Source: Anaerolineae bacterium
GTDB lineage: Bacteria > Chloroflexota > Anaerolineae > S140-20
Assembly: GCA_027021705.1 (NCBI GenBank)
Contig: JALUTT010000059.1
Span: 1-64,000, forward strand
Direction: 5' to 3'
DNA length: 64,000 nt
The notes under the pieces were generated by a model, which was not told the DNA's origin, made no database searches, and was given only the letters and a program-made list of their open reading frames with translations. The translations under genes and the position numbers were made by a program. This document shows positions 33,534-59,899 of the stretch, one piece after another. The number at the start of each line of letters is the position of its first letter. Positions within the stretch are counted from its first letter, which is position 1.

Positions 33534-33546
33534 TAATTGAAAAGCC

Positions 33547-36944: not shown

Positions 36945-37012
36945 AGGGATCGTTTCCTCCTTTCGCGTTTTCTTGTGGCTTCTCTGGACCGGTCTGCCAT
37001 CGTCAAGGATTG

Positions 37013-37107
37013 GCATCTATTCAGCCTACCCTCCTGCCCCGATGGGCTATTTGAAGCACGGTTTCGCGTCGGAAACGCGCCTAACCTACGGGAGGGTGAA
37101 CAGTTAC
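37013..37107 (+). mobile_element. MITE family A copy with internal deletion
   Basis: Perfect AAGGATTG duplication (37005-37012, 37108-37115). Confidence 0.82.
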
Positions 37108-37266: not shown

Positions 37267-38064
37267 TCAGCGCATCAACCGGCGCCACTCTTCCTTCAGT
37301 TGCAGGGTGTCCAGATCGTCGGTGACCAGGAAGTCGCGCAGCAGTCGGTTGAACTTGGCCTTTTCCTCCAGCATCGGGAAGTGGCGGGTCGAGGGCAGGG
37401 TGATGAAGTGGACCTGCCCCCCTGTTCCCAACAGCCCGTTGAGCCGCTCAGCTTGGGGGGGAGGGACGACGTTATCTCGTTCCCCGTGCACCAGCAGCAC
37501 AGGGACCTGGATACGGGCCAGCTTGAGGGAAAGGTTCAGCCCCCGGACGGAGTTGGCGCTGTTGATCACGGCGGTCTCTTCCGTCTTGGTGGCCTCAACG
37601 CGTACGGGTTCGTATTCGGGGGGAAGACGCCGGCCCAGGACACGGTCCACCGGTGTGCTCCCCCCCTGGTTGGAAAGGCGAGGGTTCAGGGTTTCTCCCA
37701 GCAAAGGCAGGCTGACGGCCATCACTCGAGAGACCATATCGGGATGGCGGGCGGCCAGCAGCACAGCGGTCACAGCCCCCAGGGCGTGGCCCACCAACGG
37801 GACAGGGGGTTTGATGCCCAGGTTGGTGATGAAGTCCCGCACCAGCGCTACGTAAGATTCGACGTCGTAATGGCTGTCCAGCCGGTCCGAATCACCGAAT
37901 CCCCAGAGGTCCAGGGCATAGGTGCGGTATTCGATGGAGAGTTCCTCCATCGTCGGCACCCAATAGCGCCACGAGCCCAGCCAGCCATGGATGAAGAGCA
38001 GCGGAGGTCCTCGGCCAATGGCTTCGTAATGGACCAGGCCATCACCGATGATAATCGCGCTCAT
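37267..38064 (-). CDS. Alpha/beta hydrolase fold protein with nucleophile Ser replaced by Ala
   Basis: FIHGW, ALDLWGFGDS, GHALG, HGERDNVV, RHFPMLE. Confidence 0.85.
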   Translation of the reverse strand: MSAIIIGDGLVHYEAIGRGPPLLFIHGWLGSWRYWVPTMEELSIEYRTYALDLWGFGDSDRLDSHYDVESYVALVRDFITNLGIKPPVPLVGHALGAVTAVLLAARHPDMVSRVMAVSLPLLGETLNPRLSNQGGSTPVDRVLGRRLPPEYEPVRVEATKTEETAVINSANSVRGLNLSLKLARIQVPVLLVHGERDNVVPPPQAERLNGLLGTGGQVHFITLPSTRHFPMLEEKAKFNRLLRDFLVTDDLDTLQLKEEWRRLMR

Positions 38065-38082
38065 CGGATTCTTATCCTCTCC

Positions 38083-38484
38083 CTATACCTGTACCTGCTC
38101 CGCTCTGCGGGCTTGGACGCGCCTCAGGATGGCACGGATCTTCTCGACCAACTCTCCCGGGTCGAAGGGCTTCAGGATATATTCCTCTGCCCCTAGCTCC
38201 AGCCCCTGCTGAATCTCCGCCTCTTGCCCTTTGGCCGAGAGGAAAACGATAGGGATGTTCTGGGTGAGCGGATCGGCCTTCAGTTGGGAACAGGCCTCGT
38301 AGCCGGTCATCTTGGGCATGCGCACATCGAGCAGAATCAGGTCGGGGATCTCCTCTCGAGCCTTCTCGACGGCTTCCTCCCCATTGTTGGCCTTGATGAT
38401 CTCAAAGCCCCCCAAACTGCTCAGGGTGAACGCGATCAACTCCCGAATATCCCGTTCGTCTTCGGCAACCAGTATCTTCGTCAT
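38083..38484 (-). CDS. Single-domain response regulator
   Basis: ILVAEDE, DLILLDVRMP, FLSAK, ILKPF. Confidence 0.92.
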   Translation of the reverse strand: MTKILVAEDERDIRELIAFTLSSLGGFEIIKANNGEEAVEKAREEIPDLILLDVRMPKMTGYEACSQLKADPLTQNIPIVFLSAKGQEAEIQQGLELGAEEYILKPFDPGELVEKIRAILRRVQARRAEQVQV

Positions 38485-38566
38485 TGGTAACCCCTGCTTT
38501 CCTCGCCCCTTCTTCGATGTTCTTCCCTTGCACCTGGGCTTCTGGGGCCCAGGATGACGGGCCCGA

Positions 38567-41500
38567 TCAGGCCGTCCCTTTGCCCTCCAACGTGCTTTCC
38601 ATCAACCGCTCGATCTCTTCCATCAACGTCTCGATGGCAAAGGGCTTGGTCAGAAAGTGAGACGCTCCCAGCGCCAGAACTTTCTCCCGATGCCGCTCCG
38701 GCTCCGTCAGGCTGGCGGTCATAACCACGACCGGGATCTCCCGGGTGGCGGGGTCCTCCTTCAGGCGGGTCAACGTCGTGTACCCGTCCAGTCCCGGAAT
38801 CTTCAGGTCCAACAGGATCAGGTCGGGGCGGTGTTCTCGGGCCAGGGCCAGCCCCTCCTCGCCCCGGTAAGCGGCGAGAACGGTGAACCCACGCTCCTGG
38901 AGGACCTGCTGCAGCAAGGCGATGGTGTCCCGATCGTCGTCCACCACCAGGATGCTCCCTTTGGACTCCAGGATCTGGTCAACGACGTGGAGCAGTCGGC
39001 CCTCGTCTATGGGTTTGGTCAGGTAGTCCACGGCCCCCAAACGGAGCCCTTTCTGCTTGTCCTGCAGGATGGAGACGATCACGACGGGGATGTCGGTTGT
39101 GGAAGCGTCTTCCTTCAAGCTCTGCAGGAGTTCGAACCCATCCATGTCGGGCAGCCGAATGTCCAGCGTGATCAGGTCGGGGTGCATCTGGCGGGCCAGG
39201 GCCAGGGCCGTCTGCCCCTGATGAGCGATGATGGCCTGGTAGCCGCTGCCCTCCAGGTGATGACCAAGCAGGTTGGCGATGTCCGGGTCGTCCTCAACGA
39301 TGAGCACCCGGCGCACCCGAGGACCACGACCGTTGCCGGGATGGCCTTGGACGACCTCTTCCTCGACCTCCGGGGGGGCCTGGGGAAGAGGTTCCTCTTC
39401 CTCCTCCTGCGCAATGGGGAGGGTGAAGCTGAAGGTACTCCCTTGACCCGGCTCGCTCTCCACCCAAATCTCCCCGCCGTGCATCTCCACCAGCGATTTG
39501 ACGATGGAGAGCCCCAGACCCGTCCCCCGAATCTCCTGGACGAGGGGATGATCGGCCCGGAAGAAGCGGTCAAAGATCTTCTCCTGATCCTGAGGGGTGA
39601 TGCCGATGCCGGTATCCTTAACCTGGATCAGGACCATCTCACCCTGGCGCTCTGCCTGCACCGTGATCTCCCCTTCTGGCGGGGTGTACTGGTAGGCATT
39701 GCTGACCAGGTTGGTGAGGACTTGGATGAGACGGGCCGAGTCGCCCCAGACGGGGGGCAGGTCGGGCGCGACTTGGGAGTGCAGCCGCAGCCCCTTCTCC
39801 TCGGCCTTGCGGCGCAGGCTTTCCATCACCTGTTCCACCAGGCTGGCGACGTTGACCGCCCGCTTCTCCAACTCGATGCGACCGCTGTCAATGCGACCGA
39901 TGTCCAAGAGATCGTTCACCAGGTCGCTCAAGCGGTCGGCGTTGGACTTGATGATGCGCAGGAACCGCTCCTGGCCCTCGGTCAGCCGCCCGGCCGTGCC
40001 CAGGAGGAGCAGGTCGGCATACCCCTTGATGGAGGTCATCGGGGTGCGCAGTTCGTGGGAGACGGTGGAGACGAACTCGCTCTTGGCGCGCTCAGCTTCC
40101 ACCTCCTTGGTAATGTCCCGGAAGACGGAGACGGTGCCCAGGAACTCTTCTTCCATATGGACAGGGGCCAGGTGGACGCTGACGACCCGCCCCTCAATCT
40201 CCAGCCGCTCCTCCAGGTATCGGGTCTCGGCGTCCAGCATCTCTTCTGGTTCCTGCATCCACCGCTCCACCAGGGCGACCCAGGAACGGCCAGCGGTCCC
40301 GTAGAGCCCCAGCAGCTCATCAATGGAACGGCCTATAATCTGCCGACGTGGGGTGTTGAGGATCCGTTCCGCTGCCGCGTTGAAGAGGATCACGTGGCCG
40401 GTGGTGTCGGTGACCATGACGCCATCGGCGACGCCTTCCAAGATGGCCTGGCTCTTGGCCGCCTCGACCTGGATCTTCTTGAGCATCGCTCCCAGCCGTT
40501 CAGCACCCTCCCGAATCAGCCGGTAGAGCTCGGCGTTGTTGATGGCATTGGCCACTTGGATGGCGGCCGCCTCGACCAGGCGCAGATGGTCTTCGGTGAA
40601 GCGATCGGCCTCTTTGTGGAAGAGGAGGAGGGCCCCCATCGCTTCATCTCCTACAATGAGGGGGATCGCCAGGGCGGAGCGGTAGGAGCGCGGCTGTCCG
40701 TTGTCCACCCAGCGGGGGTCATGGTGGATGTCGGGCACGATGGCCGGCTCTTTGTGGGCGATGACCCAGCCGGCCAGCCCCTCCCCTCGGCGGAAGGGTG
40801 TGGGGGCTCCCCGGGGTGGGAGCCGCCGTGAGCCTCCCAGGCTCGCCCGCTGGATCAGATGGTCGGTCTGGGGATCCACCATGAAGATGGCTCCCCGATC
40901 CGCCTCCACAGCCTCTACCACCAGTTCCAACGCCCGGTTCAGCACACGATCCAGGTCCAGACTGGCGCTCAACTCACTGGTGATCCGATAAAGGGTTTCG
41001 ACCCGATCCCGCTCCATCGTTAGTTCTTCCAGCGCCTGGGCCAGCTCCTGGGTTCGCTCCTCAACCCGCTGCTCCAGCTCCTGGCTGAAGCGGGTGACCT
41101 GCTCGAAGAGCCGGGCATTTTCAATGGCTACAGCGGCGCCGTTGGCGAAGGTGAGGGCCAGTTCTGCCTTCGCCCTGTCGTAGAAGTTGGGCTCCTTCTT
41201 GTCCAAGGTCAGCATCCCCAGCAACCGATCTCCGTAGAGGAGGGGGACGCCCATCCAGGAGCGGATGTGGTCGTGGGGCGGTTCCCGGAAGGGTGCGTAG
41301 ACGGCCGGAGCATCGGCCACGATGAAGGGGGCCCGCCGCCGCACCACCTCCGTGTTGGGGTTGTCCCCACCGATGGGGAAGGTCAGCCCTACCACCGCTT
41401 CCAACTCCTCGAAGCCTCGCCCGCCGATGATCCGCAGGTGATCCTCCTCCAGCAATTGGATGGAGGCGCTGTCATACTCGACCACCTTGCGCAGTTCGTC

Positions 41501-44500
41501 CAGGATCAGGTCCAGCACTTCCTCTAGCCGCAGGGTAGAGCTGATCACCCGGGAGACCTCGACAAGGGCGGCCAGTTCCGCTGCCCGCCGCTCGGCGGCC
41601 TCGTACAGACGGGCGTTGACGATGGCCACGGCGGCTTGGGCCGCCACCGTGGTCAGCACCCGCAGGTGCTCCTCGTCGTAAGCCTGACTGTCTTGGAAAT
41701 CTTGGACGGCGATGACGCCGATCACCTCTTCGCCGGCGATCATCGGGACGCCCAACCAGGAGCAGGCTGGTCGGCCCAAGGGGGTGATGCCCATCCTCTC
41801 CATCTGGGCTTCAATATCGCCGACCAGGAGCAACGGCTGGCGGGTTCTAAGCACGTAGCCCGTCAGGCCAGCGTGGAGGGGGATGGGCTCCTGGAAGACC
41901 GGCTTCCCTTCCTCGTAGAAGAGGGGGAAGCAGATCTGCCCTTTTTCCTCCTCCAGCAGCGCGACGAAGATGTTGGAAGTGTCCATCAACCGGCCCAACT
42001 GCTGGCGGAGCGATTCTAGCACGTCGTCCAAGCGAACCGTGGCGGACAGGGCCCGTCCGATCTCGTTAACGATGGAGAGCTCGGTGAGTCGTCGCTCCTT
42101 CTCGGCATAGAGCCGGGCGTTCTCGATGGCGATGGCCGCCTGGGTGGCGAAGATCTCCAGCACCTCCACCGTGTTGCGGTCGGGGATGCGGTCGTCGCGG
42201 GGCTCGTCCACGGACATAATGCCCCAGATCTGACCGCCGGGGCCGCGCAGGGGCACGATGAGCATATCCTCCGCGTGCCAGTGTCCTGGCTCCCGCTCGA
42301 CCACGGGCAGGAGGGTGTAGGTATCCAGCCCCTCGGTCACCTCGGTCCTCTCGGCCGGGATGTAGTAGCTCTGACTGATGCGGAACTCGTCACATAGGAC
42401 CTTCTCCACTTCGGACCAGGGCTGAGTGACCTGCTTCAGCCGCTCGAAGACGGCCAAGGGGAGGCCGGCCATCGCCGCCCGGCGCAGGTGCTCGCCCTCC
42501 AAGACGCTGATGAGGACGATGTTGAACCCCACCGCCTCCTGGACGGCGTAGGCCACCTCCTCCAGGATCTCCTCCAGAGGGCGGTCGGCCCGGAAGGCCT
42601 GGCTGATCTGGAAGAGGTTGGCCAACTGCTCGGCCCGGCGGCGGAGCAGGTCACTGCGTTCCAACTGTTCCTGGTAGCGCCGAGCATTGCCGATGGCCAA
42701 GGCCGCCTGGGCCGCCAGCGCCTCCAGGAACTCGACGTGGCTGGGGGTGAAAGCGGCCTGGCGCGGGCTCTCCAGGTTGAGCACCCCGACCACGGTGGCG
42801 GCGTGCCGGATAGGGATGGCCACTTCGGAACGGGTCTCTGGAATGACCGGCAGGTAGTCGGGATCCTGGTGCACATCATCCACCCGGGCCGGCTCCCCGG
42901 TCTGAGCGACCCGTCCGACGATCCCTACCCCGGGCTGGAGCTCTATCTTCATCTCCCGGCGAGGACGGGCAGCTCCCTTGCTCGCCCGCAGGACCAGGTG
43001 CTCTCCTTCGGGGTCCAGCAGGTAGATGCTCCCGTAGAAGGCATCAGTGGCCCGGAGCGCCTCCGTCAGCACCATGTCCAAGATGCGGTTCAGGTCCAAC
43101 GTAGCATTGAGTTCCTGACCAATGCGGCTCAGGGCGGTTAGTTCCTCCACCCGCTCCTGGAGTTGCTCATCGGTCTGGCCGTAGAGGCGGGCGTTCTGGA
43201 TGGCCACGGTGACGTGCTGGGCGAAGATGCGGGCCACTTCGATCTCATCCTGGCTGAAACGGCGAGGGGCTCCCTTGCTGGCGACGGCCAGGGCTCCCAT
43301 CACCTCATCCCCGAAGATGAGGGGGATGGCCAAGACGGAGCGCAGCCCCTCACGATCGGCCAATCCAGGCCGCCCCAGGTTGGCCTCGGGAAGATCGGGG
43401 ATGACGATGGGAGTCCAAGAGCGATCGGGAGAGGTAATCAGGGCGAGAGCCCGGTCCCGGAGGATTTGCTCCTGGGCGACGTACTCCTGGGAGAGGCCGT
43501 AGCTGGCCTGGAAACGGAGCACTTCGTCGTCCGGCTCACTCATCAGGAGGGCGGTGGCCGGGGCGTCGAAGAGATGGGCGGCCTGCTCCACGATGGTGGG
43601 CAGGAGCTCCGGCAGGTTGAGCTTGGTGCTGATGGTGGCAACGCTGCTCTGGAGACGCTCCAGGGCCAGGCGTCGCCGCTGCTCCGCCCGGTAGAGGCGG
43701 GCGTTTTCTACGACGGCTGCCGCCTGGTGGGCGAAGAGGGCCAGCAGCCGGGCGTCGGCCTCGCTAAAGGGTTTCCCATCGCGCCGGTTGGATGCCTGGA
43801 TGATGCCGATCCGACGCTCCCCGACAATCATCGGGGCCAGGATGGTCGCCCGGACGCCGGCGATGAGGGCCAGAGGCTTGAGGCCCGCCTCGGCAACCAG
43901 CGGTTCCCCGGGTAGGTCGTTGCTCATCCAGTACTCCCCCTCGGTCCAGATCTGCCAGGCGGTCGTGTCCGGCTGGAGGGGGATTCGATAGCGCTGCACG
44001 ATCTCGTCGGGCACGCCATAGAAAGGAGCCTGAGCGACCAGGGCCTGCTCCTCTTCCTCGTAGAGGAGGACGCCTACCATCTCCACGTCCATCAGGTCCG
44101 CGATCCGCTGGGTCAGGTAGGTGTAGAGCTCATGTTGGTCGGTCAAGGCCCCGATCGCCTTGGAGATCTCGTGCAGCCCCGCCATCACCGTCAGACGTTG
44201 CTCGCGCTCCTGGTAGAGTTGGGCGTTCTCGATGACCGCCGCCGCCTGGTTGGCCAGGATGCAGAGCAGGCGGATGTCGTTCTCGTCGAAGGGGGAGCCA
44301 TCGTGCTTGTTGGAGACCTGCAGGATGCCGAACCGACGTCCGCCCACCGACAGCGGGGCCAGGAGCGTGCGCTGCACCCCGACCGTCGTGGCCAAGGGGA
44401 TGAGTCCGGCCTCGGCCACCATCGGGTCCTGAGCGACCTGGTTGCTCACCCAGTACTCGCTCTCCCGCCAGATCCGCTCCATCCGGCTGCCGGGAGGGAC

Positions 44501-46129
44501 GGGAATCTTGTAGTAGGCGACCAACTCGTCGGGTACCCCGTAGAAGGGAGGGCGGCTGACCAGCGCCTGTTGGGCCTCGTTGTAGAGGAGTACACCGGCC
44601 ATCTCTACCCCCATCAGCCGGGCAACGCGCTCGCTGATGCGGGCGTAGACCTGGTCCACGTCCTCCAGGGCGCTGATGGCCTGAGAGATCTGGTAGAGAC
44701 CGGCCAGCTCCTTGAGCCGCTGCTGTCGCTCTTCGTAGAGGCGGGCGTTCTGAATGGCGATGGCCGCTTGGTTAGCCAGGGAGTTCAGGGTGCTCAGGAT
44801 GCTCTCGGGAAAGGCCCCCAGCTCGTAACTGACCAACTCCAAGGAGCCGATGAACTCGTCGCCGGCCATCAGGGGCAGCCCCACGTAGGAGCGGAAGGGG
44901 TACTCGGGGCTGTCCAGCTTGGGGCGCACGTCCCGGCGGGCTTGCACATCAGGGATCCAGAGCATCTGCCGGTGGCGAGCGATCCAGCCGCTGTATCCCT
45001 CGTCCAGGTGATAGACGTTGCCCACGCGCTCGGCGTAATCCCTGTGGCCCTCCTGGGTGAAGGAGCGCATCACCTGGGCCTCCGGGTCCCACAGGCAGAT
45101 CTCCGCAATGGCATAGGGGGCCAGTTCCCCTGCAGCCTCCAGGATGGCCTGCAGGGTCTCCTCCAAATTGAGGCTGGTGCTGATGGTGCGGCTGATGCGG
45201 TTGACGATGGAGAGTTCCTCCACTCGGCGGGCCAGGGAGGTGTCGGCGATCTGGTAGAGGCGGGCATTTTCGATGGCGATGGCGCTCTTCTCGGCGATCG
45301 CCTCCAGCAGTTCCAGGTCACTCTGCTCGAAGCCCCCCTGCACCTTGTTGTAGAAGCAGAGCAGGCCGAAGGGTTCACGACCGCGCCGCAGAGGGACGGC
45401 CAACATCGTGTGGATGAAGCCGCTGCTCCGATCTACCGTCCAGCAGTAGCGGTGGTCTGAGGGGAGATCGTTGTGCAGGAAAGGCTGGTTACGGTGCAGG
45501 ATCCAATCGGCCAGGGTCTCTCGATCGAGGGGGCGCTCATTGGCCCGTTGCACCAGTTCGGGAGGCAAGCCTCGGCTCGCCGTCAGGCGCAGACGGCGCT
45601 CTCGCTCGTCGTAGAGGAGCACCTCGGCCGCCGTGGCCGAGAGGAGGGGCATCGCCCGGTCCAAAATCAAATCCAACAACTCGTCCAGGTTCAACTCCCG
45701 GCTGAAGGCCGCCCCCAGGGTGTCCAGCGTGCGATAGAGTTCCTTCTGACGACGCTGAACGCCGGCCAGTTGGCCGACCACGTAGGCCAGGACGTTGAAG
45801 AGGACGATGGAGGTGAGCATCTCAATGGCCTGAGGTGAGAACCCCTCCTCGCTGAGGATGGGAGCCAGAAGGGGGATGAAGAGGGAAACGGCTGCCAGGG
45901 CTGTGGCCAATCCGGCACCCACCCCCCAGAAGGCGGCGGCTAGGATGATGGGGACCAGGTAGAGGTAACGAAGGGCCTGGGCCCAGGGGACCCCCATATT
46001 CGCTGTGGAGTAGACCACCACCGTGACCAGGGCAGTGCTCAGGACCACAGTGCCCAGGATGATGCCATAGGGCTGTTGGACGGAGAGTCGTAGTCTGCCT
46101 CGTTGTGTCTGGGATGTCAGGAGGTTCAT
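38567..46129 (-). CDS. Membrane-bound hybrid histidine kinase: TM region, 10 GAF, PAS, HisKA, HATPase, 2 receiver domains
   Basis: Ten A(I/V)xNA(R/Q/E)(L/R)(Y/F) GAF ends, FNAAAE PAS, VSHELRTP H-box, NLVSNA, DTGIGI, GTGLGL, two REC domains. Confidence 0.92.
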   Translation of the reverse strand: MNLLTSQTQRGRLRLSVQQPYGIILGTVVLSTALVTVVVYSTANMGVPWAQALRYLYLVPIILAAAFWGVGAGLATALAAVSLFIPLLAPILSEEGFSPQAIEMLTSIVLFNVLAYVVGQLAGVQRRQKELYRTLDTLGAAFSRELNLDELLDLILDRAMPLLSATAAEVLLYDERERRLRLTASRGLPPELVQRANERPLDRETLADWILHRNQPFLHNDLPSDHRYCWTVDRSSGFIHTMLAVPLRRGREPFGLLCFYNKVQGGFEQSDLELLEAIAEKSAIAIENARLYQIADTSLARRVEELSIVNRISRTISTSLNLEETLQAILEAAGELAPYAIAEICLWDPEAQVMRSFTQEGHRDYAERVGNVYHLDEGYSGWIARHRQMLWIPDVQARRDVRPKLDSPEYPFRSYVGLPLMAGDEFIGSLELVSYELGAFPESILSTLNSLANQAAIAIQNARLYEERQQRLKELAGLYQISQAISALEDVDQVYARISERVARLMGVEMAGVLLYNEAQQALVSRPPFYGVPDELVAYYKIPVPPGSRMERIWRESEYWVSNQVAQDPMVAEAGLIPLATTVGVQRTLLAPLSVGGRRFGILQVSNKHDGSPFDENDIRLLCILANQAAAVIENAQLYQEREQRLTVMAGLHEISKAIGALTDQHELYTYLTQRIADLMDVEMVGVLLYEEEEQALVAQAPFYGVPDEIVQRYRIPLQPDTTAWQIWTEGEYWMSNDLPGEPLVAEAGLKPLALIAGVRATILAPMIVGERRIGIIQASNRRDGKPFSEADARLLALFAHQAAAVVENARLYRAEQRRRLALERLQSSVATISTKLNLPELLPTIVEQAAHLFDAPATALLMSEPDDEVLRFQASYGLSQEYVAQEQILRDRALALITSPDRSWTPIVIPDLPEANLGRPGLADREGLRSVLAIPLIFGDEVMGALAVASKGAPRRFSQDEIEVARIFAQHVTVAIQNARLYGQTDEQLQERVEELTALSRIGQELNATLDLNRILDMVLTEALRATDAFYGSIYLLDPEGEHLVLRASKGAARPRREMKIELQPGVGIVGRVAQTGEPARVDDVHQDPDYLPVIPETRSEVAIPIRHAATVVGVLNLESPRQAAFTPSHVEFLEALAAQAALAIGNARRYQEQLERSDLLRRRAEQLANLFQISQAFRADRPLEEILEEVAYAVQEAVGFNIVLISVLEGEHLRRAAMAGLPLAVFERLKQVTQPWSEVEKVLCDEFRISQSYYIPAERTEVTEGLDTYTLLPVVEREPGHWHAEDMLIVPLRGPGGQIWGIMSVDEPRDDRIPDRNTVEVLEIFATQAAIAIENARLYAEKERRLTELSIVNEIGRALSATVRLDDVLESLRQQLGRLMDTSNIFVALLEEEKGQICFPLFYEEGKPVFQEPIPLHAGLTGYVLRTRQPLLLVGDIEAQMERMGITPLGRPACSWLGVPMIAGEEVIGVIAVQDFQDSQAYDEEHLRVLTTVAAQAAVAIVNARLYEAAERRAAELAALVEVSRVISSTLRLEEVLDLILDELRKVVEYDSASIQLLEEDHLRIIGGRGFEELEAVVGLTFPIGGDNPNTEVVRRRAPFIVADAPAVYAPFREPPHDHIRSWMGVPLLYGDRLLGMLTLDKKEPNFYDRAKAELALTFANGAAVAIENARLFEQVTRFSQELEQRVEERTQELAQALEELTMERDRVETLYRITSELSASLDLDRVLNRALELVVEAVEADRGAIFMVDPQTDHLIQRASLGGSRRLPPRGAPTPFRRGEGLAGWVIAHKEPAIVPDIHHDPRWVDNGQPRSYRSALAIPLIVGDEAMGALLLFHKEADRFTEDHLRLVEAAAIQVANAINNAELYRLIREGAERLGAMLKKIQVEAAKSQAILEGVADGVMVTDTTGHVILFNAAAERILNTPRRQIIGRSIDELLGLYGTAGRSWVALVERWMQEPEEMLDAETRYLEERLEIEGRVVSVHLAPVHMEEEFLGTVSVFRDITKEVEAERAKSEFVSTVSHELRTPMTSIKGYADLLLLGTAGRLTEGQERFLRIIKSNADRLSDLVNDLLDIGRIDSGRIELEKRAVNVASLVEQVMESLRRKAEEKGLRLHSQVAPDLPPVWGDSARLIQVLTNLVSNAYQYTPPEGEITVQAERQGEMVLIQVKDTGIGITPQDQEKIFDRFFRADHPLVQEIRGTGLGLSIVKSLVEMHGGEIWVESEPGQGSTFSFTLPIAQEEEEEPLPQAPPEVEEEVVQGHPGNGRGPRVRRVLIVEDDPDIANLLGHHLEGSGYQAIIAHQGQTALALARQMHPDLITLDIRLPDMDGFELLQSLKEDASTTDIPVVIVSILQDKQKGLRLGAVDYLTKPIDEGRLLHVVDQILESKGSILVVDDDRDTIALLQQVLQERGFTVLAAYRGEEGLALAREHRPDLILLDLKIPGLDGYTTLTRLKEDPATREIPVVVMTASLTEPERHREKVLALGASHFLTKPFAIETLMEEIERLMESTLEGKGTA

Positions 46130-47025
46130 CGTAGCACGCTCATCAGACCAAAGACCACGTTGCTAGCATAGCCTGGCAGGATGCTGCGGGACCAGCGGAA
46201 GAGGGCCGAGGCCGTGAACGCAGCAGTCAGGCTGTAGAAGGCCGCGCCTACGATGATCAAAGGATCCGCACTGAAGTTCTGCTTGACCAAGACGGTAGCC
46301 GCTTCCAGCCCGGCAGTCAGGAAGGCAGCCGTCCAGAATCCGAGCCCTCGGGAGAAGTAGAGTTCGTTGAAGACAACCCCACGCATGAAGAGCTCTTCGG
46401 ACAGGGACTGAGGCCCAACCTCGTAGCAGGTTTGCCAGAAGAAATAGGGCCAGGGTTTCCAGGAGAGAGAGTCCAGGCCAGAGAGGGCGATAATGGCGAG
46501 GAGGTGACTGCCGATGAGCAGGCCCACACTCGCACCCACCGGCACCTGGGCCCGCCAGTGACGGAAATCGAGCCCCACCCGGCGCATTGCTTCGGGCTTC
46601 TTCTTCACGGCGAAGGCTACGATGCCCCAGAAGAGGAGCATTATCCCCCCCCAGAGCAGGCGGAGGCTGGAGGCGCGGGGACTTCGGAGCAGTTCTCCTT
46701 GGAGTCCGCCCTTCGTCAGAAGATCGCTCCCGATCATCACGCCTAGCCCCACGACATAGGCGAAGAAGGTCCAGCGCCGAGCCTGTCGGGGGCGGTGGCG
46801 CAATCCGTACCAGATGGCGGCTGCCAGGTAGAGACAGAGTGAGAAAGCCTCAGCGGTAATGGAGGTGATCACCGTTGGCCATCCCATCCGGTCCACGATG
46901 CCCACACCTGCTATGGACAACACGGCTACCAGAAAGATGACGCCCGTGGTCCGGCGGCGTTCTTGCCTCAGTCTCTCCGTTCGCTCTACCCAGTCGTCGC
47001 GGACGGTGTAAACAAGGGCCGACAT
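46126..47025 (-). CDS. CPBP (CAAX protease-like) intramembrane protein, probably degenerate
   Basis: EELFMRG motif, multiple TMs; downstream His motifs not evident; ATGA overlap with the kinase. Confidence 0.65.
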   Translation of the reverse strand: MSALVYTVRDDWVERTERLRQERRRTTGVIFLVAVLSIAGVGIVDRMGWPTVITSITAEAFSLCLYLAAAIWYGLRHRPRQARRWTFFAYVVGLGVMIGSDLLTKGGLQGELLRSPRASSLRLLWGGIMLLFWGIVAFAVKKKPEAMRRVGLDFRHWRAQVPVGASVGLLIGSHLLAIIALSGLDSLSWKPWPYFFWQTCYEVGPQSLSEELFMRGVVFNELYFSRGLGFWTAAFLTAGLEAATVLVKQNFSADPLIIVGAAFYSLTAAFTASALFRWSRSILPGYASNVVFGLMSVLR

Positions 47026-47162
47026 AGCCTCCTCCCCTGATGAGCTCCTCACTGCCCTAGCTCCGGCCCTCTGAGGCCGAGAGGCGGCGAGGAGGTCCTT
47101 TCCGCTGACCCTGCCCTCTCGGTGCCTGAGGACCCTCCAAGGCGTCCGTCAGGGCGGGGGGA

Positions 47163-48089
47163 TCAGGCAGGCAGGCGGCTCTGACTCTGGGCCTGCATCT
47201 GGCGGGCGGCGATACGGCGTTTCTCTGCCGCGACTTCGGTGATCTCGCGGATGTCGGAGAACGGCCCATCGTCAGGGGTCACAATGCCGACGGCCAAGCT
47301 CATCAGCGGGACCTTCTGCTCCTGCCCCCGTTCATCTTTAGCAACGATGTAACCCCGCTCCCGATCCATGAAGTTGTAGTGGGTCCCGACCTCCTGAGAG
47401 AAGCGGGCCACGATCCGGTCGCGGATGGCCGGCCCACGCTCGGTCGTGGTGATGACGACGAAATCGTCACCTCCCCGATGGCCCACGAAGTCGTCGGGCG
47501 TCCCCAGTTCGTTCAGGGTCTGGTTCAGGATGTGGGCGAGGGAGCGGAGCACCTGGTTGCCTGCGATGAAACCGTAGACGTTGTCGAACTGCTCCTTGTA
47601 GTTGATGCCGATGAAGAGAAAGCTCCAATCATCCCGCCGCATCAGCTCTCGGAGCTGTTCTTCGATCAGCTTGCCGCTGGGCAGTCCCGTGTTGGGCTCC
47701 GTCAAGCCCTCCCGACGATACCACTCCAAGGCGCGCTGCACCCGCAGTCGGAGCTCTTCGATGTCGAAGGGCTTGGTAATGTAGTCGTCGGCCCCGAGTT
47801 CCAGCCCCTGGATTTTGTCGGAGCGCTCATCCCGCTGGGTCAGGAAGATGATGGGGATGTGGCTGGTGCGCAAGGTGCTGCGCAGGCGCCGGCAGACCTC
47901 GAACCCATCAATGTCGGGCAGGTTGATGTCCAGCACGATCACTTCTGGAGGCTGCTGGCGGCATCGTTCCAGCGCTTCTCCTCCCCGGGGAGCGACCTCG
48001 ACCTCGTATTCCTGCGACTGGAAGTAGATACGCAGCATGTTCGAGATGTCGAAGTCGTCCTCGACGATCAGGATATGACCCTTGCTCAT
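47163..48089 (-). CDS. Receiver + GGDEF-like domain protein (GGDDF)
   Basis: ILIVEDD, LDINLP, ITKPF; VYGFIAGNQVL, GHRGGDDFVV. Confidence 0.85.
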   Translation of the reverse strand: MSKGHILIVEDDFDISNMLRIYFQSQEYEVEVAPRGGEALERCRQQPPEVIVLDINLPDIDGFEVCRRLRSTLRTSHIPIIFLTQRDERSDKIQGLELGADDYITKPFDIEELRLRVQRALEWYRREGLTEPNTGLPSGKLIEEQLRELMRRDDWSFLFIGINYKEQFDNVYGFIAGNQVLRSLAHILNQTLNELGTPDDFVGHRGGDDFVVITTTERGPAIRDRIVARFSQEVGTHYNFMDRERGYIVAKDERGQEQKVPLMSLAVGIVTPDDGPFSDIREITEVAAEKRRIAARQMQAQSQSRLPA

Positions 48090-48174
48090 TGGCTCACCTC
48101 CGCCTGCTCAAGTGGCATCACCTACGCTCCCAAAGGCGATGGCCTGGACATCGCCGGGATGACCAGGCATCCAT

Positions 48175-49257
48175 CTACCCCCCCGTCCGTTGGGCCTTGG
48201 TGCGAATGCGTTCAATCTCCTCCTCGCTCACCGGGCGTTCGAAGCTGCGAAACCCCTCGACCCGAAACCCGTGTTTCTCGGCCAGATGACCAATCTCCTG
48301 CACCCTCTCGATCTGGATCTCCTTGCCCAAGGTGAAGGGCTCAAAGCGTCCCTCCAGGGCCAGGATCATCGTCTCTGCCATACAGGCGTAAGCCTTGCCT
48401 GGTGGAAAGCCGAAGTCGAAGTGGAAGTCCACCGGACCCGGCACTTTGACCATGCCTCCCTCGATGACCAGGACGTCGTCCCGGGCCTCGACGACCTGGC
48501 GCGAAACGTCCCGAGGACGGGCCACGTCGCAGACCACAGCTCCTGATTTCAGATGGTGCGGTTCGATGATGGACTCGATCGCGCTGGTCACGGTGATCAC
48601 AACGTCGGCCTGACGCAGGGCGCTTAGGTCTGTCGTGGTGCGGACCTTGGCGTCCGTCTCCGCCTCGATCTGCTCGCGCAATGCGTCCAACCGCTCCTGA
48701 CGGCGACCGACGAGGATCATCTCGGGGACCTCCCGACTGAGCAGCCGGGCGGAGACGGAACCGATGGCCCCCGTCGCTCCCACCACGGCGGCCACCGCCT
48801 GGTTCAAGACAATCCCCATTCGCTGCGCGGCCTGGCGCGCTGCCTCCACAGCCACGTAGACGGTGTAGCTGTCCCCCGTCGTGACGGGTATCCGCAGGCC
48901 CTTGGAGATGGTCACGCCCGCATCTCCGATCACCGAGGTGAAGGCCCCCAATCCCAAGATCTGGGCTCCCAGCCGTTCGGCCAGCCGCCCTGTCTGGATG
49001 ATCTTCTTGTAGACCACCGGAGGCGGCAGTGTCATCATCCGCTGAGGGGTGAAAGGGCAGGCCACGAACCATCCCTCGACCTCCTCCCCCGTCGCTTCCG
49101 AGCGCACGCCGGTGATGTGGGAGATGTAGACCGGGGGGAAGTAACGGGAGAAGAAGTTGATGGCTGCGACGGGCAACAGCTTCCCCAGCAGCGGGAACTT
49201 GCGCTGGACGTCTTTCTTGGGGTCTATGGGATGGATGATGAAGGCGAAGGTGTTCAT
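48175..49257 (-). CDS. NAD(P)-dependent reductase related to long-chain acyl-ACP reductase
   Basis: FAFIIHP, LGLGAFTS, TTGDSYT, VVGATGAIG, DVARPRD, YACMAE resemble the cyanobacterial AAR motifs TTGNTHT, GATGDIG, FACFAE. Confidence 0.7.
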   Translation of the reverse strand: MNTFAFIIHPIDPKKDVQRKFPLLGKLLPVAAINFFSRYFPPVYISHITGVRSEATGEEVEGWFVACPFTPQRMMTLPPPVVYKKIIQTGRLAERLGAQILGLGAFTSVIGDAGVTISKGLRIPVTTGDSYTVYVAVEAARQAAQRMGIVLNQAVAAVVGATGAIGSVSARLLSREVPEMILVGRRQERLDALREQIEAETDAKVRTTTDLSALRQADVVITVTSAIESIIEPHHLKSGAVVCDVARPRDVSRQVVEARDDVLVIEGGMVKVPGPVDFHFDFGFPPGKAYACMAETMILALEGRFEPFTLGKEIQIERVQEIGHLAEKHGFRVEGFRSFERPVSEEEIERIRTKAQRTGG

Positions 49258-49297
49258 TGTCTCCCCAGGCTTCGTCGTAGGGTGGGATGGGAATCGC

Positions 49298-50566
49298 TCA
49301 CGCCTCGGCCTGCGGCTCTCGGGGGTAGAGGCGTGGATGCATCTCTGTCCCGCCGGGAATCTTGTGATGGTCGCTCTCCTCGTAACGGACGTTCTTGGCG
49401 ATGACCCGCCGCTCCGGTGACGCGAAGAGCACCGTGTCCGATTCGATCATCCGGGCCGGGTAGATGATCAGTCCGGAGCCCAGACGGCAGTTGTGCCCCA
49501 CGCACCCTCCCAGGACGGGGAACCCTGCCTCTTGTAACTCCCCTTCGTGCAGGGCCCGAATGGGCTTGGGGAGCAGGTTGAAGTCGGTGAAGGTGGTCCC
49601 AGCACCGATGAAGGTGTTGCGTCCCACCACGCACATCTGCAGGCAGGTGTTCTGGGCCACGATGGAGTGTTCCATCAACGTGGTCATGAACAGGGAGGCG
49701 CGAAAGGGTAGATAGCAGCCGTCGGAGACGACGCTCAGCAGCAATTGGGCTCCCTGCATGATGTTCACGTTCTCGCCCACGATGGAGTTGCAGACGTAGG
49801 CGCCGGCGTGAATCCGACTGTTGTCCCCAATGTAGGTCGGTCCTTGAATGACCGCTGTCGGATCGATCTCGACGTTCTTGCCCACGTAGACGAGGGCGGA
49901 ACTGGAGAGGAACTGGCGACGCTCCAGGAGCGAACGGCCCAGGATGCGCAGCTTGGCCCACAGGTTCTGCTTGACTTCCTTTTCCTTGCGTGCTCCCTCG
50001 GCGAAGATACCGAAAACGATGTTGGCCACGAAAACGTGCACCCAGTGTTCGATGGAGAGAAACGCCTTGGTGGGAACCTGGTAGACCAGGTCACCCTGCT
50101 GGGGGGCCATGTAGGTCGGCACGTGGTAGTATCCGACTTCGTAGGCCTCCGTGTCGATCACCAAGGGGACGACTTCCTCCTCCAGACCCCGGGGGAAGTA
50201 CCACATGTCGGCCACGTAGACATCCCCCTGACGTCGGATCCCCTTTTGCAGCGTCAGGGCGTGGGAGGTGATCGCCTTGTCCTCTAGGGAGAAGGCGACC
50301 CGACAAGCCTTGCCCAGCTCACGCGCCCGCTGGATGAACTCCTCGAAGAAGGGCTTGTCGAAGAAGAGGTTATCCCGGTAGACCAGGGTCTCGACGCGGT
50401 CCTTGGGGATCTCTTCGAAGGAGTGGACGGGCCGTTCCCGATCACAGTAGGGGGCCAGGATGTCCCGCTGATGGAGCCAGAGCCGCTTGTTGAGCACGGT
50501 CAGCTCTCGGGCCGGCTCGTTGAAAGGGGGAATGTACCGCTTATCCTCGATAATGATCTTGCGCAT
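49298..50566 (-). CDS. Hexapeptide-repeat (left-handed beta-helix) transferase-like protein
   Basis: VGKNVEIDPTAVIQGPTYIGDNSRI, VVGRNTFIGAGT, VGHNCRLGSG; GlmU-like architecture. Confidence 0.75.
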   Translation of the reverse strand: MRKIIIEDKRYIPPFNEPARELTVLNKRLWLHQRDILAPYCDRERPVHSFEEIPKDRVETLVYRDNLFFDKPFFEEFIQRARELGKACRVAFSLEDKAITSHALTLQKGIRRQGDVYVADMWYFPRGLEEEVVPLVIDTEAYEVGYYHVPTYMAPQQGDLVYQVPTKAFLSIEHWVHVFVANIVFGIFAEGARKEKEVKQNLWAKLRILGRSLLERRQFLSSSALVYVGKNVEIDPTAVIQGPTYIGDNSRIHAGAYVCNSIVGENVNIMQGAQLLLSVVSDGCYLPFRASLFMTTLMEHSIVAQNTCLQMCVVGRNTFIGAGTTFTDFNLLPKPIRALHEGELQEAGFPVLGGCVGHNCRLGSGLIIYPARMIESDTVLFASPERRVIAKNVRYEESDHHKIPGGTEMHPRLYPREPQAEA

Positions 50567-50666
50567 TGCGGTTGGCCCTCATCTCAAACCGTCCCAACGA
50601 TCACCAAGACCATCCCCGACCGATGAGCTGTTGAAGACACCACTGTCCTGCTCCTCCCAAGCGCCG

Positions 50667-51317
50667 TCAGTCCAGGGGTTGCTTGTCAATGAGGATGGTG
50701 CATGTCTCGTCTCCCTGGGCGATGCAGGAAACCTCTTCCACGTAGAAGTTCTTCCCTCCGCTGACCCAGTATAGCGATTCCTGCAGGATGCCCACGGCCA
50801 GGAAACAGGCCGGGTAGGAGGTGTGGCGTCCCCAGCAGACGGGACACCGTTCGATGATCCAGAAGAAGTGCTCCTCGTCCTCGTCCAGGCGCACCACCTG
50901 GTCGGTGAACTTGTTGAAGGTCTCGGCGAAGACCTCAAACCCCACCTTGAGCTTCATCCCCAGGGGGAGCAATCGAAAGGCCAGGTCGGCGATGCCCAGG
51001 ACAGGTCCAAATTCCTTGATGCCGTACTTGAAACAGGCCCGTCCGGCCCGTAGGGCCAGGCCCCGTCCTCCCCGGGGGCCGTACATCTCGTCGAGAGCCC
51101 GTTGGATGGCTCCGATCTCCTCGAAGCTGAACTGAAGGTCAAAGTTGTTGGGGGGGTAGTTGTTCACCCGATGTTGCAACCGAGCCAGGTTTAGCACTGC
51201 GTTGACCCCATTGCGTCCCATCACCTCCTCCATAGCCAGGAGGATGATGCGGCCCATCTTGTTGGGGTAGTGGTAGCCGGATGAGCGTTCTGTCGCAGCT
51301 TCGCGCATTGGTGTCAA
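50667..51317 (-). CDS. V4R (4-vinyl reductase) domain protein
   Basis: ERCPVC, PACF..GIL, VEEVSCIAQGDETC V4R signature. Confidence 0.85.
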   Translation of the reverse strand: MTPMREAATERSSGYHYPNKMGRIILLAMEEVMGRNGVNAVLNLARLQHRVNNYPPNNFDLQFSFEEIGAIQRALDEMYGPRGGRGLALRAGRACFKYGIKEFGPVLGIADLAFRLLPLGMKLKVGFEVFAETFNKFTDQVVRLDEDEEHFFWIIERCPVCWGRHTSYPACFLAVGILQESLYWVSGGKNFYVEEVSCIAQGDETCTILIDKQPLD

Positions 51318-52123
51318 CCGCCCTTTCGTATCGGTGTGCTCGTGCTCAGAAAGTCCTGGATGGTCGCGATGAACCGCTCGGGTTCATCCAGCATTGGGAA
51401 GTGGCGGGAACGGGGCATCATCTGGACGCGGGCGTGGGGGACTCCCTGGGTGAGCATCTCTGCCTGATTGGGATTGACGATGTTGTCCCGCACGCCGAAG
51501 ACGCCTAGCGTGGGCACCCGGATCTCCTGGAGGCGGGGGAAGAGGTTGGTGTGGTGGAGATCCCCAATGCTTCGGAAGAAGGACTCGGTGTTGGCCTTCG
51601 AGACATCCCGGAAGATCATCCGGCGGACTTTGGGAGAATCCCCGGCTAGAACGATCCACATCACCATCCGGAGGATGAGGGGGATGCGCCAGATCAGATG
51701 GGCGATCCAGCGCACGCCGGCCAGCTTCAGGAAGAGGTTCAGCGACCGCCCGTCTATGGGAGAGCCCACGATGGCCACCCGGGTCACCCGCTGGGGGTGG
51801 TCGAGGGTGAGCTTGAGGGCCACGGTTCCCCCCATTGAGTGGCCGAACACCGGCGCCCGTTCAATCCCCAGCGCCTCCATGAACTGGTCCACCATCTGGG
51901 CGTAGGAATCAATTTTGAAGGGCGGTGCCTGCTCCTTGGCGGATTCCCCAAAGCCCCAGAAGTCGAGGGCGTAGACCTTGTAACGTCCCAGGCTCGCAAT
52001 GGCGATCATCGAGTCCCGCCACACATCCCAGGAGTTGATCCAACCGTGGAGCAGGATGACTGGCTTGCCCCGGCCATAGGCTTCGTAGTGAACAATCCCT
52101 TGGTCGGTAACAATGGAACTCAC
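51314..52123 (-). CDS. Alpha/beta hydrolase with intact catalytic Ser
   Basis: LHGW, ALDFWGFGES, GHSMGG, DNIV, RHFPMLDE. Confidence 0.9.
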   Translation of the reverse strand: MSSIVTDQGIVHYEAYGRGKPVILLHGWINSWDVWRDSMIAIASLGRYKVYALDFWGFGESAKEQAPPFKIDSYAQMVDQFMEALGIERAPVFGHSMGGTVALKLTLDHPQRVTRVAIVGSPIDGRSLNLFLKLAGVRWIAHLIWRIPLILRMVMWIVLAGDSPKVRRMIFRDVSKANTESFFRSIGDLHHTNLFPRLQEIRVPTLGVFGVRDNIVNPNQAEMLTQGVPHARVQMMPRSRHFPMLDEPERFIATIQDFLSTSTPIRKGG

Positions 52124-52144
52124 CGTCTGTTCCTATCTCCCTCA

Positions 52145-52407
52145 TCCCGCACGCAGGCGGTCGGGTTCCCCGGGCTCCGGGGATACCTCAGTCCTTTCGA
52201 CGCAGCAGGATAATTCGCAGACGCGCCCGCCACCGAAGGCAGGCGCGACCTGAACCAGAACCTTTGAACGGCTCAGGTGCCCGGCCCTCGCGAGCCAGCG
52301 TGCGGAATCGTCTGGACGCAGAACCCCTCTCCGATGATCCCCTGAGATCACAGTCGAAAGTGCCGGGCACCCTCTGATTCTGCCTGTAGCGATACAGGCC
52401 CCAGACG
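52145..52407 (-). ncRNA. Candidate structured RNA with two closed multi-hairpin domains
   Basis: Closing stems TTCCGCACGC/GCGTGCGGGA and CGTCTGG/CCAGACG; several internal hairpins with G-U pairs on the minus strand; family not identified. Confidence 0.35.
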
Positions 52408-52409
52408 TG

Positions 52410-52967
52410 TTACTCGCTTTCCGCCTCTTCAGCGTCCATCCGTTCCAGAATGGAGTAGAGGAGTTCCAGGAGAACCCGCTTCACGCTCTCCCGGTCGGTG
52501 GCTACACAGGGCAGGACCTTCACGCCATCCTCAATCCGCAGGGCGATGCGCAGGTCCTCCACAGACCAGGCATCTTCCATATCCTGCTTGTTCGCCGCCA
52601 CCACGTAAGGGGTTGGGGCGTAGGCGCGGAAGGTGTCCAGGATATTCCGCGCCTCCCGGAAGGTCTCCGGACGCACACTGTCAATCAACACAATGAAGCC
52701 TAGCATTCCTTCGGAGAGGATCTCCCACATGAAGTCGAAGCGCTTCTGTCCGGGGGTGCCGAAGAGGTAGAGCACCAGGTCCTCGTCCACGGTGATCCGA
52801 CCAAAGTCCATGGCCACCGTGGTGCGCTCTTTGATACGCTCCGACTCGCTGGAGATTTTGCGCTCCGTGGAGACGACCTCGATCTCACTGATCGTCTGGA
52901 TGAACTGGGTTTTGCCTGCCGCGAAGGGGCCTGTGACGACCATCTTGACGGTTTGTACTTTGCCCAT
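52410..52967 (-). CDS. MglA/CvnD-like small GTPase
   Basis: VTGPFAAGKT, TTVAMDFG, LFGTPGQKRFDFMW, ANKQD, CVAT. Confidence 0.9.
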   Translation of the reverse strand: MGKVQTVKMVVTGPFAAGKTQFIQTISEIEVVSTERKISSESERIKERTTVAMDFGRITVDEDLVLYLFGTPGQKRFDFMWEILSEGMLGFIVLIDSVRPETFREARNILDTFRAYAPTPYVVAANKQDMEDAWSVEDLRIALRIEDGVKVLPCVATDRESVKRVLLELLYSILERMDAEEAESE

Positions 52968-53043
52968 TGTCCTGCGACCACCCTGTTGTGTCAATGACGA
53001 GAAGTAGGATTGCTTAGTCGAGAAGGGAAAGGGCCGATGGGGC

Positions 53044-53889
53044 TCAGAGTTGCTTGATGCGGTCTATCAACCGCATAACGACGGAGCGCTTGACCGCTGG
53101 CGGCCGTTGGGCCGGCGGTGGGAGGGGAGCTTCCCGGCGCTCCCCACCCCGACTGGGTGGAGCGACCTCTCTGCCCTCTGGACGGACCAGTTCGACCAGC
53201 CCCGCCTGCAGCATCCCGTAGACGATCTTCCGAATCTGGAACTCGCTCATGTTGGTGGCTTGAGCGATCTGGCGGATGGTGTTGCGCGGGTTGATAAAGG
53301 AAATCACCCGCCACTCCTCAATGCTCAGGCTGATGTTGCGCAAGGAGGTGCCGGGGCGATCGGTGAAGCGCAAGGCCATATCCAGGTCGGGCAGTTCGTC
53401 CTGGAGCTGCTCCCACTCCTTCATCCGCCGGGTGCCCTCGATGATGACGTTCTCCAGGCCGATGGGCACCGTGATCCGTTCCGGCGGGGGGAGTTGATTG
53501 GGTTCGAAGCGGAACTTCCCATCCGTCCAGGTGAAGAGCTGGTAGACGATCTCCAGCATGTGCTGCCGCACGCTCTGCAGGATGTCCTTCTGCGTAACGT
53601 AGCCCGCGTTGATGAGCCAGAGTCCCAGCTCCTTGTCGTCCGTCGCGTTCACCTGGGCCTGGATGAGCCGGGTCTGCTCGGTCGTTAGCCGCCCTGCCTT
53701 GAGCAGAATCTGGTCCAGCCGGTTGTGCTGGTTGCCCAGGGAGGCATAGACCAGTTTCCCCTCGCGAAAGCAGAGGTCTGCCCGCTCTGAAGAGCGTTCC
53801 ACCGTCAGGGTACCCGTCTTTCGGGCCAGATTGATGAGGTTCAACAGTTGGGTAATGCTAAAATCACGCAGGTTTCCTTTTAATGCCAT
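53044..53889 (-). CDS. DUF4388 (PATAN/PatA_N) domain protein with C-terminal wHTH
   Basis: MALKGNLRDFSITQLLNLI..KTGTL..FREGKLVYA..LFTWTDGKFRF. Confidence 0.88.
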   Translation of the reverse strand: MALKGNLRDFSITQLLNLINLARKTGTLTVERSSERADLCFREGKLVYASLGNQHNRLDQILLKAGRLTTEQTRLIQAQVNATDDKELGLWLINAGYVTQKDILQSVRQHMLEIVYQLFTWTDGKFRFEPNQLPPPERITVPIGLENVIIEGTRRMKEWEQLQDELPDLDMALRFTDRPGTSLRNISLSIEEWRVISFINPRNTIRQIAQATNMSEFQIRKIVYGMLQAGLVELVRPEGREVAPPSRGGERREAPLPPPAQRPPAVKRSVVMRLIDRIKQL

Positions 53890-54024: not shown

Positions 54025-54053
54025 ATTATACCCGTTCTTATACAGCAAGTCAA
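54025..54053 (-). promoter_or_regulatory. Sigma70 promoter TTGACT-17-TATAAT for the DUF4388 locus
   Basis: agtcaa 54048-54053, attata 54025-54030. Confidence 0.65.
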
Positions 54054-59843: not shown

Positions 59844-59899
59844 CGGGCCGCAGGAGGCGGGCAGCAGCCCCGGAATCCCCATTCCGGCGTTCTATCGGA

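Follow-up and report, generated by a model that had tools for sequence, protein, structure and literature searches.

Acyl-derived signals are reportedly made and perceived by synthase-sensor pairs such as CqsA/CqsS, LqsA/LqsS, PhcB/PhcS and RpfF/RpfC. We compare with these pairs an 11-gene locus that occupies positions 53889 to 37267 of the minus strand of a 64,000-nucleotide stretch (the window, hereafter) of the genome of an Anaerolineae bacterium of the phylum Chloroflexota (assembly GCA_027021705.1, contig JALUTT010000059.1). What the locus presumably has in common with them is an acyl-thioester-using enzyme adjoining a membrane histidine kinase, together with receiver and GGDEF-type outputs. 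We take its candidate synthase to consist of a thioester reductase and a GlmU-fold protein rather than of a pyridoxal phosphate enzyme, a methyltransferase or a crotonase, and we assume that the attached GTPase and the lack of a DNA-binding regulator are further differences.

For the GTPase, the closest described systems are the actinobacterial G protein systems or conservons (CvnA-D, MfpB-E; PMC13343842, PMC11343762), which, in the accessible parts of these papers, likewise have genes for a histidine kinase and a Ras-like GTPase in a single operon that also encodes a small GTPase-adjacent partner. MfpC, a member of the DUF742 family (PMC11343762, PMC13343842), is given there as the guanine nucleotide exchange factor of MfpB (PMC11343762). 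In contrast to the conservons as presented in those parts, the locus has no roadblock gene, a G4 motif NKQD instead of NxFD, a DUF4388 protein instead of a DUF742 one, a multi-GAF HisKA kinase with receivers, and additional enzymes and pseudo-enzymes. It resembles the MglA Group 5/PATAN pairs (Wuichet & Sogaard-Andersen 2014, PMC4316618) in the motifs TT, GTPGQ and NKxD, the PATAN neighbour and the absence of a coupled roadblock; the accessible part of that paper describes the pair only, calls its neighbourhoods variable, and leaves the eight further conserved genes of the locus undescribed. The literature that we searched, from which subscription papers were largely missing, yielded no description of the operon or of the related three-gene cassette presented below.

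Judging from the sequences, we tentatively propose, as a reading with nearly even chances, that the reductase and the GlmU-like protein may make or modify a fatty-acyl-derived molecule, which the kinase would sense, and that the output would pass through the receivers and the GTPase, not through a transcription factor.

The reductase, the GlmU-like protein and their kinase partners

The reductase is homologous over its length to the N-terminal reductase of PigE and to cyanobacterial acyl-ACP (acyl carrier protein) reductase (AAR), which reduce thioesters to aldehydes in a Cys-dependent manner, as reported in the accessible part of PMC8341465. Its Cys292 aligns with the AAR cysteine, and this residue and the glycines of the NAD(P) motif GATGAIG were kept in 90/90 relatives. 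Both family matches fell under the cut-off (139.6 bits with TIGR04058, against the 449.7 bits needed). The catalytic Cys and the NAD(P) motif are thus common to the window protein, AAR (TIGR04058, PDB 6JZQ) and the PigE reductase (PDB 4PPM), whereas the window locus has neither an aldehyde-deformylating oxygenase nor an aminotransferase partner. A fused paralogue of 680-800 aa, with an unannotated N-terminal domain of about 300 aa, adjoins hydrolases or PlsC-type acyltransferases in other loci (L127:6033-8087, L128, L129, L130, L131, L015, L016, L017 and L146), and is a candidate wax-ester or long-chain alcohol enzyme.

An earlier note on this DNA, made from the letters alone, had described the next protein as hexapeptide acyltransferase-like. 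The hexapeptide domain is present, but the protein as a whole has the full fold of the archaeal GlmU ST0452 (PDB 5Z09/2GGO), aligning with 5z09 over its whole chain (Z 30.0, root-mean-square deviation (rmsd) 2.9, 318 aa aligned), and lacks the GlmU catalytic motifs. In GlmU, the GxGxR loop and the acetyltransferase His are catalytic. The GxG[TS]R form of the loop was found in 0/120 GlmU-like homologues, and Gln replaces the His in 100/100 anchored homologues, in register with the GlmU of the same genome. The fold scores were Z ~22 with GMPPA/KONJAC and Z ~18 with eIF2B gamma/epsilon. By their sequences, the GlmU-like proteins form a distinct family with invariant residues of its own, which databases mislabel 'multidrug transporter' or 'carbonic anhydrase'. 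One further protein, P0203 (813 aa), is a GT2 glycosyltransferase fused to a member of this family.

A profile search retrieved full-length distant GlmU-like homologues (about 28% identity), in which the GxGxR loop occurred in 0/65 and Asp328 was invariant in 33/33 aligned proteins. Their assignment to the family is supported in two ways. First, the profile of this distant subfamily had the window GlmU-like gene as its sole match in the window genome (E 6e-67). Second, with the N-terminal domain alone the distant homologues scored a median of 70 bits, the nucleotidyltransferases of the genome itself reaching 1.5 at the most. In the Atlas, their clusters were most often from Myxococcota, the phylum being recorded for few members.

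From an alignment narrowed to 12 distant homologues, we obtained 66 metagenome loci, the majority of them low in GC. The 45 loci informative for the position directly upstream of the GlmU-like gene had a short-chain dehydrogenase/reductase (SDR) there in 23 cases, an amidinotransferase-like gene in 4 and some other gene in 12, while 6 had no gene; the position directly downstream was occupied by a HisKA_7TM(-GAF) kinase, with seven transmembrane (7TM) segments, in 19 of 42. After clustering at 70% identity, the SDR was present in 20 of the 37 clusters, the 7TM kinase in 17 and both in 15 (for example L178:2717-7716, with its kinase at 5536-7716, L182:4794-9500, L190-L193 and L235). The SDR is of the NAD_binding_4/TIGR01746 thioester-reductase type and keeps YxxxK in 16/16; its similarity to the window reductase is insignificant (E 0.15). 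The unit of reductase, GlmU-like protein and sensor kinase hence exists, on sequence evidence, in two forms with unrelated reductases, which supports a synthase-sensor reading; of all the evidence that the three may work together on an acyl-derived molecule, this recurrence is the strongest. Two neighbours were noted in these loci: a PrsW-family metalloprotease downstream of the cassette of L191, and a gene for a 391-aa protein, presumably glycine amidinotransferase-like and matching no Pfam/NCBIfam family, which takes the place of the reductase before the GlmU-fold gene of L210, L213, L214, L221 and L223.

Layout and distribution of the operon

All 11 open reading frames (ORFs) lie where the earlier note had placed them, with the domains it had listed, as assigned with Pfam/NCBIfam (Table 1). 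From the DUF4388 gene to hydrolase 2, they are separated by 76, 286, -4, 100, 40, 85, 110, -4, 82 and 18 nt.

Table 1. Features of the operon in the window, in the direction of transcription
Feature	Positions	Strand	Evidence
Sigma-70-type housekeeping promoter TTGACT-N17-TATAAT	54025..54053	-	11/12 consensus match
DUF4388/PATAN protein, C-terminal winged helix, likely GTPase regulator	53044..53889	-	PF14332 E 3e-33
MglA-family small GTPase, Group 5 type	52410..52967	-	MglA-like ATP_bind_1; G-motifs
Alpha/beta hydrolase 1, triad S96-D213-H241 intact	51314..52123	-	Pfam/NCBIfam; triad
V4R-domain protein, five Cys, optional member	50667..51317	-	PF02830
GlmU/ST0452-fold protein (nucleotidyltransferase-like + left-handed beta-helix), family marker of the system	49298..50566	-	Hexapeptide match; fold
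Acyl-thioester reductase, PigE-N/cyanobacterial AAR type	48175..49257	-	PigE E 1e-65; AAR E 1e-40
REC + degenerate GGDEF protein	47163..48089	-	Pfam/NCBIfam; motif loss
CPBP/Rce1-like membrane protein, lineage-specific accessory	46126..47052	-	E 0.0014, under cut-off
Membrane-anchored histidine kinase: 3 predicted transmembrane segments, 10 GAF, PAS, HisKA (His2025), HATPase, 2 REC	38567..46129	-	Pfam/NCBIfam
Single-domain receiver (REC)	38083..38484	-	PF00072; Asp53
Pseudo-hydrolase paralogue (hydrolase 2), Ala94 at nucleophile, KxEWxR tail	37267..38064	-	Sequence comparison

The single promoter that had been proposed for the whole locus is borne out by its relatives: the footprint TTGAC-N18-TATAAT was exact in 40 of them, with an unconserved spacer, and a loose match occurred in 47 of 53 upstream regions. 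The same pattern has 64 sites in the window genome. Before the internal genes of the relatives, it was absent from the GTPase (0/58), hydrolase 1 (0/60), reductase (0/96), REC-GGDEF (0/101), kinase (0/100), REC (0/36) and hydrolase 2 (0/37) genes, and rare before the V4R (4/44) and GlmU-like (5/97) genes. We found no conserved operator around the promoter in the relatives. The 11 genes are thus probably co-transcribed as one operon, as judged from this arrangement. Neither an exporter nor a DNA-binding response regulator is among them, and the absence of the latter points to an output probably at the protein level. In the 286-nt gap after the GTPase gene, the longest open frame has 95 codons and no ATG start, and Rfam had no match within 30000-60000.

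Downstream, an 865-aa multi-pass membrane protein of no Pfam/NCBIfam family (34084-36681), with a promoter-like site of its own (37140-37112), was left out of the operon because it has no family and is unassigned in the related loci. A short, very basic ORF-like stretch, smaller than the ORF length threshold applied, lies between it and hydrolase 2 (about 36785-36997, minus strand). The surroundings also contain a dispersed intergenic repeat of about 70 nt (33030-33099 and 37036-37105, 96% identical), with a possible third copy at about 59880-59990 suggested by ORF text near 59788, and a 107-nt tandem duplication (33321-33535).

The synteny check called for by the earlier note was made with the reductase as anchor, on the best 80 of 210 GTDB matches, each gene being counted only in loci long enough to show it. 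The gene order proved to be kept in Anaerolineae, with the GlmU-like gene in 63/68 loci, REC-GGDEF in 62/71, the kinase in 55/62, hydrolase 1 in 37/54, the GTPase and DUF4388 genes each in 31/45, REC in 26/28 and hydrolase 2 in 20/22; all nine core genes occurred together in 19 loci. Together, the conserved order and promoter argue that the locus is more than chance. Two of the genes counted as members at the outset fared less well: the V4R domain is there but the gene is optional (24/61), and the CPBP gene is a genuine ORF with a sub-threshold Rce1-like match that was beside the operon in 0/62 informative GTDB loci and, among the class relatives, only in L001, L002 and L013. The slot before the kinase, where CPBP stands in the window, holds a periplasmic binding protein in L021:12041-13249, L031 and L035, and an S-adenosylmethionine methyltransferase in L013:7827-8591.

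Across 301 genomes of the phylum, the GlmU-like gene was found in 54, a reductase homologue in 53 and the DUF4388 gene in 61; 52 of the 54 GlmU-like-positive genomes had a reductase homologue, and 52 of the 53 reductase-positive genomes the GlmU-like gene. For the 41 genomes of the class, the numbers were 18, 18 and 22. The 15 stand-alone reductases of the class all belonged to genomes with the GlmU-like gene, the 23 genomes without it having no such reductase, counts in which related genomes are not independent; the positive genomes are somewhat larger than the others. In other classes the operon is split: 12 of 14 loci have the order (V4R)-GlmU-like-REC/GGDEF-kinase, followed by hydrolase 2 where the stretch is long enough, the DUF4388 and GTPase genes are adjacent to each other at a separate site, and the hydrolase 1 orthologue was unlinked in 5/5 genomes tested. 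A tblastn search of plasmids with the GlmU-like protein gave no match.

Putative receptors and the GTPase arm

The pairing of an active hydrolase with a Ser-to-Ala paralogue, noticed earlier, holds among the relatives. Hydrolase 1 (motif GHSMG) keeps its S-D-H triad in 61/61. Hydrolase 2 (motif GHALG) forms a separate branch with a KxEWxR tail (30/32), and its nucleophile position is not Ser in 28 of 33 relatives (Gly in 24, Asp in 3, Ala in 1, Ser in 5). The PDB matches listed for the two hydrolases (43 and 60) include none of RsbQ, KAI2/D14 and GID1, no direct alignment with these proteins having been made, so that the likeness to these receptors can be offered as an analogy only.

Active diguanylate cyclases have a metal-binding DxD and a GG[DE]EF motif. 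The REC-GGDEF protein keeps Asp54 of its REC domain in 78/78 relatives, but the position of the first metal ligand is G, R, K or S in 78/78, and the window motif is GGDDF where the relatives mostly have GGDNF (N at the fourth position in 55/78). Both domains announced by the earlier note are thus present, the GGDEF one being degenerate and outside the motif definition of an active cyclase. A pattern search for canonical cyclases in the window genome gave none. A paralogous V4R and REC-GGDEF pair lies elsewhere in this genome (G000:C2 57637-58263 and 56770-57588, L018).

The kinase His and receiver Asp residues are intact, and Asp53 of the single receiver was kept in 30/30 relatives. The kinase core has a median identity of 54% with its relatives, the N-terminal 135 aa were matched in only 2/66, and the complete kinases of the relatives carry receiver domains in only 11/39. 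The five Cys of the V4R protein were kept in 27-33 of 33 relatives; its similarity to PoxR/MopR was insignificant (E 0.08-0.1).

The GTPase has the motifs GPFAAGKT (G1), TT (G2), GTPGQ (G3) and NKQD (G4), whose positions were invariant in 49/49 relatives. According to the accessible part of PMC4316618, polarity proteins of MglA Group 1 have TVPGQ as G3 and an Arg finger beside the G2 Thr, those of Group 2 (conservons) have NxFD as G4, and those of Group 5 have Thr-Thr as G2, GTPGQ as G3 and [NT]KxD as G4, with bacterial hosts such as Chloroflexi and an occasional PATAN neighbour; its Table S2 includes a Group 5 MglA-PATAN pair without MglB, Anaerolinea ANT_06780 (179 aa). As the window motifs are those of Groups 4/5, the GTPase belongs neither to Group 1 nor to Group 2, and we assign it by its motifs to Group 5. 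The MglA-like GTPase with a PATAN neighbour reported earlier is therefore there, but it is not of the polarity type. The roadblock (MglB) family had no match on contig C59 and five over the cut-off on other contigs; within the related loci, a roadblock gene occurred in four only (L076, L104, L105 and L160). A separate Group 1 MglA of the TVPGQ type lies among roadblock genes on contig C179, and a second Group 5-type GTPase adjoins a response regulator (G000:C132 32239-32739, L019).

GATOR1/SEA is a eukaryotic regulator of Rag GTPases. In the predicted model of the DUF4388 protein (predicted local distance difference test 87), the winged-helix domain, residues 164-239 (window 53173-53400), had a GATOR1/SEA subunit domain as best match (Z 10.2, rmsd 1.9, 75 aa), versus Z 5-6 for ordinary winged helices and Z 8.2 for a methyltransferase domain. 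A likeness of the whole chain to GATOR1 was rejected (template modelling score 0.25, rmsd 16), the 75-residue domain alone matching, so that we regard this predicted resemblance as a lead only. The Npr2/Npr3 proteins have tandem winged helices, as stated in the accessible part of PMC3521125.

A proposed pathway and its competitors

The proposed pathway would run as follows. First, the reductase would convert an acyl-ACP or acyl-CoA (coenzyme A) thioester into an aldehyde. Second, the product would be acylated or carried by the GlmU-like protein, at a site other than that of GlmU, around the invariant Asp328. Third, hydrolase 1 may cleave the resulting ester, which the dead paralogue and the V4R protein would bind. 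Fourth, the kinase would phosphorylate REC and REC-GGDEF. Fifth, the DUF4388 winged-helix protein would set the nucleotide state of the GTPase, as MfpC does for MfpB. By its sequence, the operon belongs neither to the conservons nor to the Group 1 MglA modules, and its proteins stand outside GlmU, AAR (by the cut-off) and the active cyclases; by analogy, its mode of action would come closest to that of a synthase-sensor pair with a G-protein arm of the conservon kind attached.

Several observations weigh against this proposal. In G001 (a genome of the same family), G019, G020 and G256, the operon is intact except for a clean absence of the reductase, and REC-GGDEF directly follows the GlmU-like gene (the G019 locus also being without the kinase); no reductase homologue was found in G019, G020, G256 and G301 at E 1e-20 or 1e-25. 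The reductase was near none of the 14 other-class loci, and among the 29 genomes of other classes that have both genes, 27 possess only the longer fused paralogue, located elsewhere. The reductase is hence dispensable. Its homologues outside the operon often adjoin PlsC-type acyltransferases, which indicates a bulk-lipid context for them. Among the distant loci, six have a kinase or an amidinotransferase-like gene with no adjoining reductase, besides the 12 of 45 with an unrelated upstream gene. Any enzyme activity of the GlmU-like protein is putative, because the known catalytic His is missing. The input end and the GAF number of the kinase vary widely among relatives, and the DUF4388 gene matched DUF742 (PF05331, the MfpC family) neither in Pfam nor in the Atlas, where 25 families were listed for 40 members. 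Finally, stressosome-type genes (RsbT, GAF-STAS, STAS, RsbT, RsbX) stand as insertions within the operon, close to the kinase, in G001 (L157:13681-16978), as well as in G002 (L001/L174) and G021 (L004/L175), and partly in G005 (L008/L176) and G033 (L012). These insertions in five class relatives point to a general stress input and, together with the reductase-less operons and the PlsC neighbours, suggest that the kinase may also read foreign signals or internal metabolites. The idea, already put forward in the earlier note, that the operon makes and senses its own acyl-derived signal thus gains from the invariant reductase Cys, the intact triad of hydrolase 1 and the SDR-GlmU-like-7TM kinase cassette, and loses from the four genomes in which the reductase is missing.

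It is possible, though somewhat unlikely, that the system senses the metabolic state of, or stress in, its own cell. The GlmU-like, GGDEF and hydrolase 2 pseudo-enzymes would then act as binders of metabolites that the cell already contains (acyl-CoA/ACP, sugar-phosphates, GTP) and adjust both the kinase and the GTPase, while the reductase and hydrolase would trim an internal pool, with nothing secreted. The loss of catalytic motifs in three conserved proteins agrees with this explanation, and so does the fold common to the GlmU-like protein, GMPPA/KONJAC and eIF2B gamma/epsilon, the latter proteins having a non-catalytic regulatory role. So do the plain housekeeping promoter with no conserved operator, the persistence of the system without the reductase, and the RsbRST-type insertions. 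It leaves unexplained, however, why two unrelated reductases stand beside the GlmU-like gene and why the kinase of the distant cassette has an external 7TM sensor, and stressosome genes are absent from the genome to which the window belongs.

We consider it unlikely that the operon is a union, formed in Anaerolineae for the sake of co-expression, of two or three modules (DUF4388-GTPase-V4R; GlmU-like-REC/GGDEF-kinase-pseudo-hydrolase; a bulk-lipid reductase) with no common signal. That the modules are unlinked in other classes, that the kinase half is absent where DUF4388-GTPase-V4R is found in G024, G040 and G232, and that reductase homologues adjoin acyltransferases would fit such a merger. 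Yet the parts, even where unlinked, are distributed over almost the same set of genomes, V4R accompanies one half in some loci and the other half in others, and the adjacency of reductase, GlmU-like and kinase genes recurs independently.

The suggestion that a polarity GTPase directs the response to poles or septa, steering gliding or patterning the filament, is highly improbable: PATAN is named after the heterocyst-patterning PatA and adjoins Group 1 and 5 MglA in the accessible part of PMC4316618, Chloroflexales have septal pili and channels in that of PMC7332563, and the output is probably at the protein level, but the GTPase lacks the Group 1 TVPGQ and Arg finger, the genome has its separate Group 1 MglA on C179, and neither TadE (37/41 class genomes, p 0.12) nor CheW (11/41, p 0.49) tracks the operon, which leaves the earlier claims of a polarity role and of a filament or motility link without support.

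Returning to the synthase-sensor proposal, a broader and more speculative form of it, which we regard as rather doubtful, is that the GlmU-fold family, with either of two unrelated reductases, would constitute a new class of cell-to-cell signal synthase, whose acylated fatty alcohol or aldehyde is read by the neighbouring membrane kinase. To this the Chloroflexota form would have added a hydrolase as eraser, a pseudo-hydrolase as receptor, and a G protein as output, reached by way of a PATAN-winged-helix regulator that is similar to part of GATOR1, making a bacterial hormone-to-G-protein pathway.

Kinase-linked bacterial G-protein signalling has been described for the actinobacterial conservons, and the present operon would be a second architecture of this kind, in filamentous Chloroflexota. 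The three-gene cassette of reductase, GlmU-like protein and 7TM kinase presents in minimal form, amenable to heterologous tests, what may be a new class of chemical signalling. It would also provide a first functional handle on the widespread GlmU-fold family and on the MglA Group 5 GTPases.

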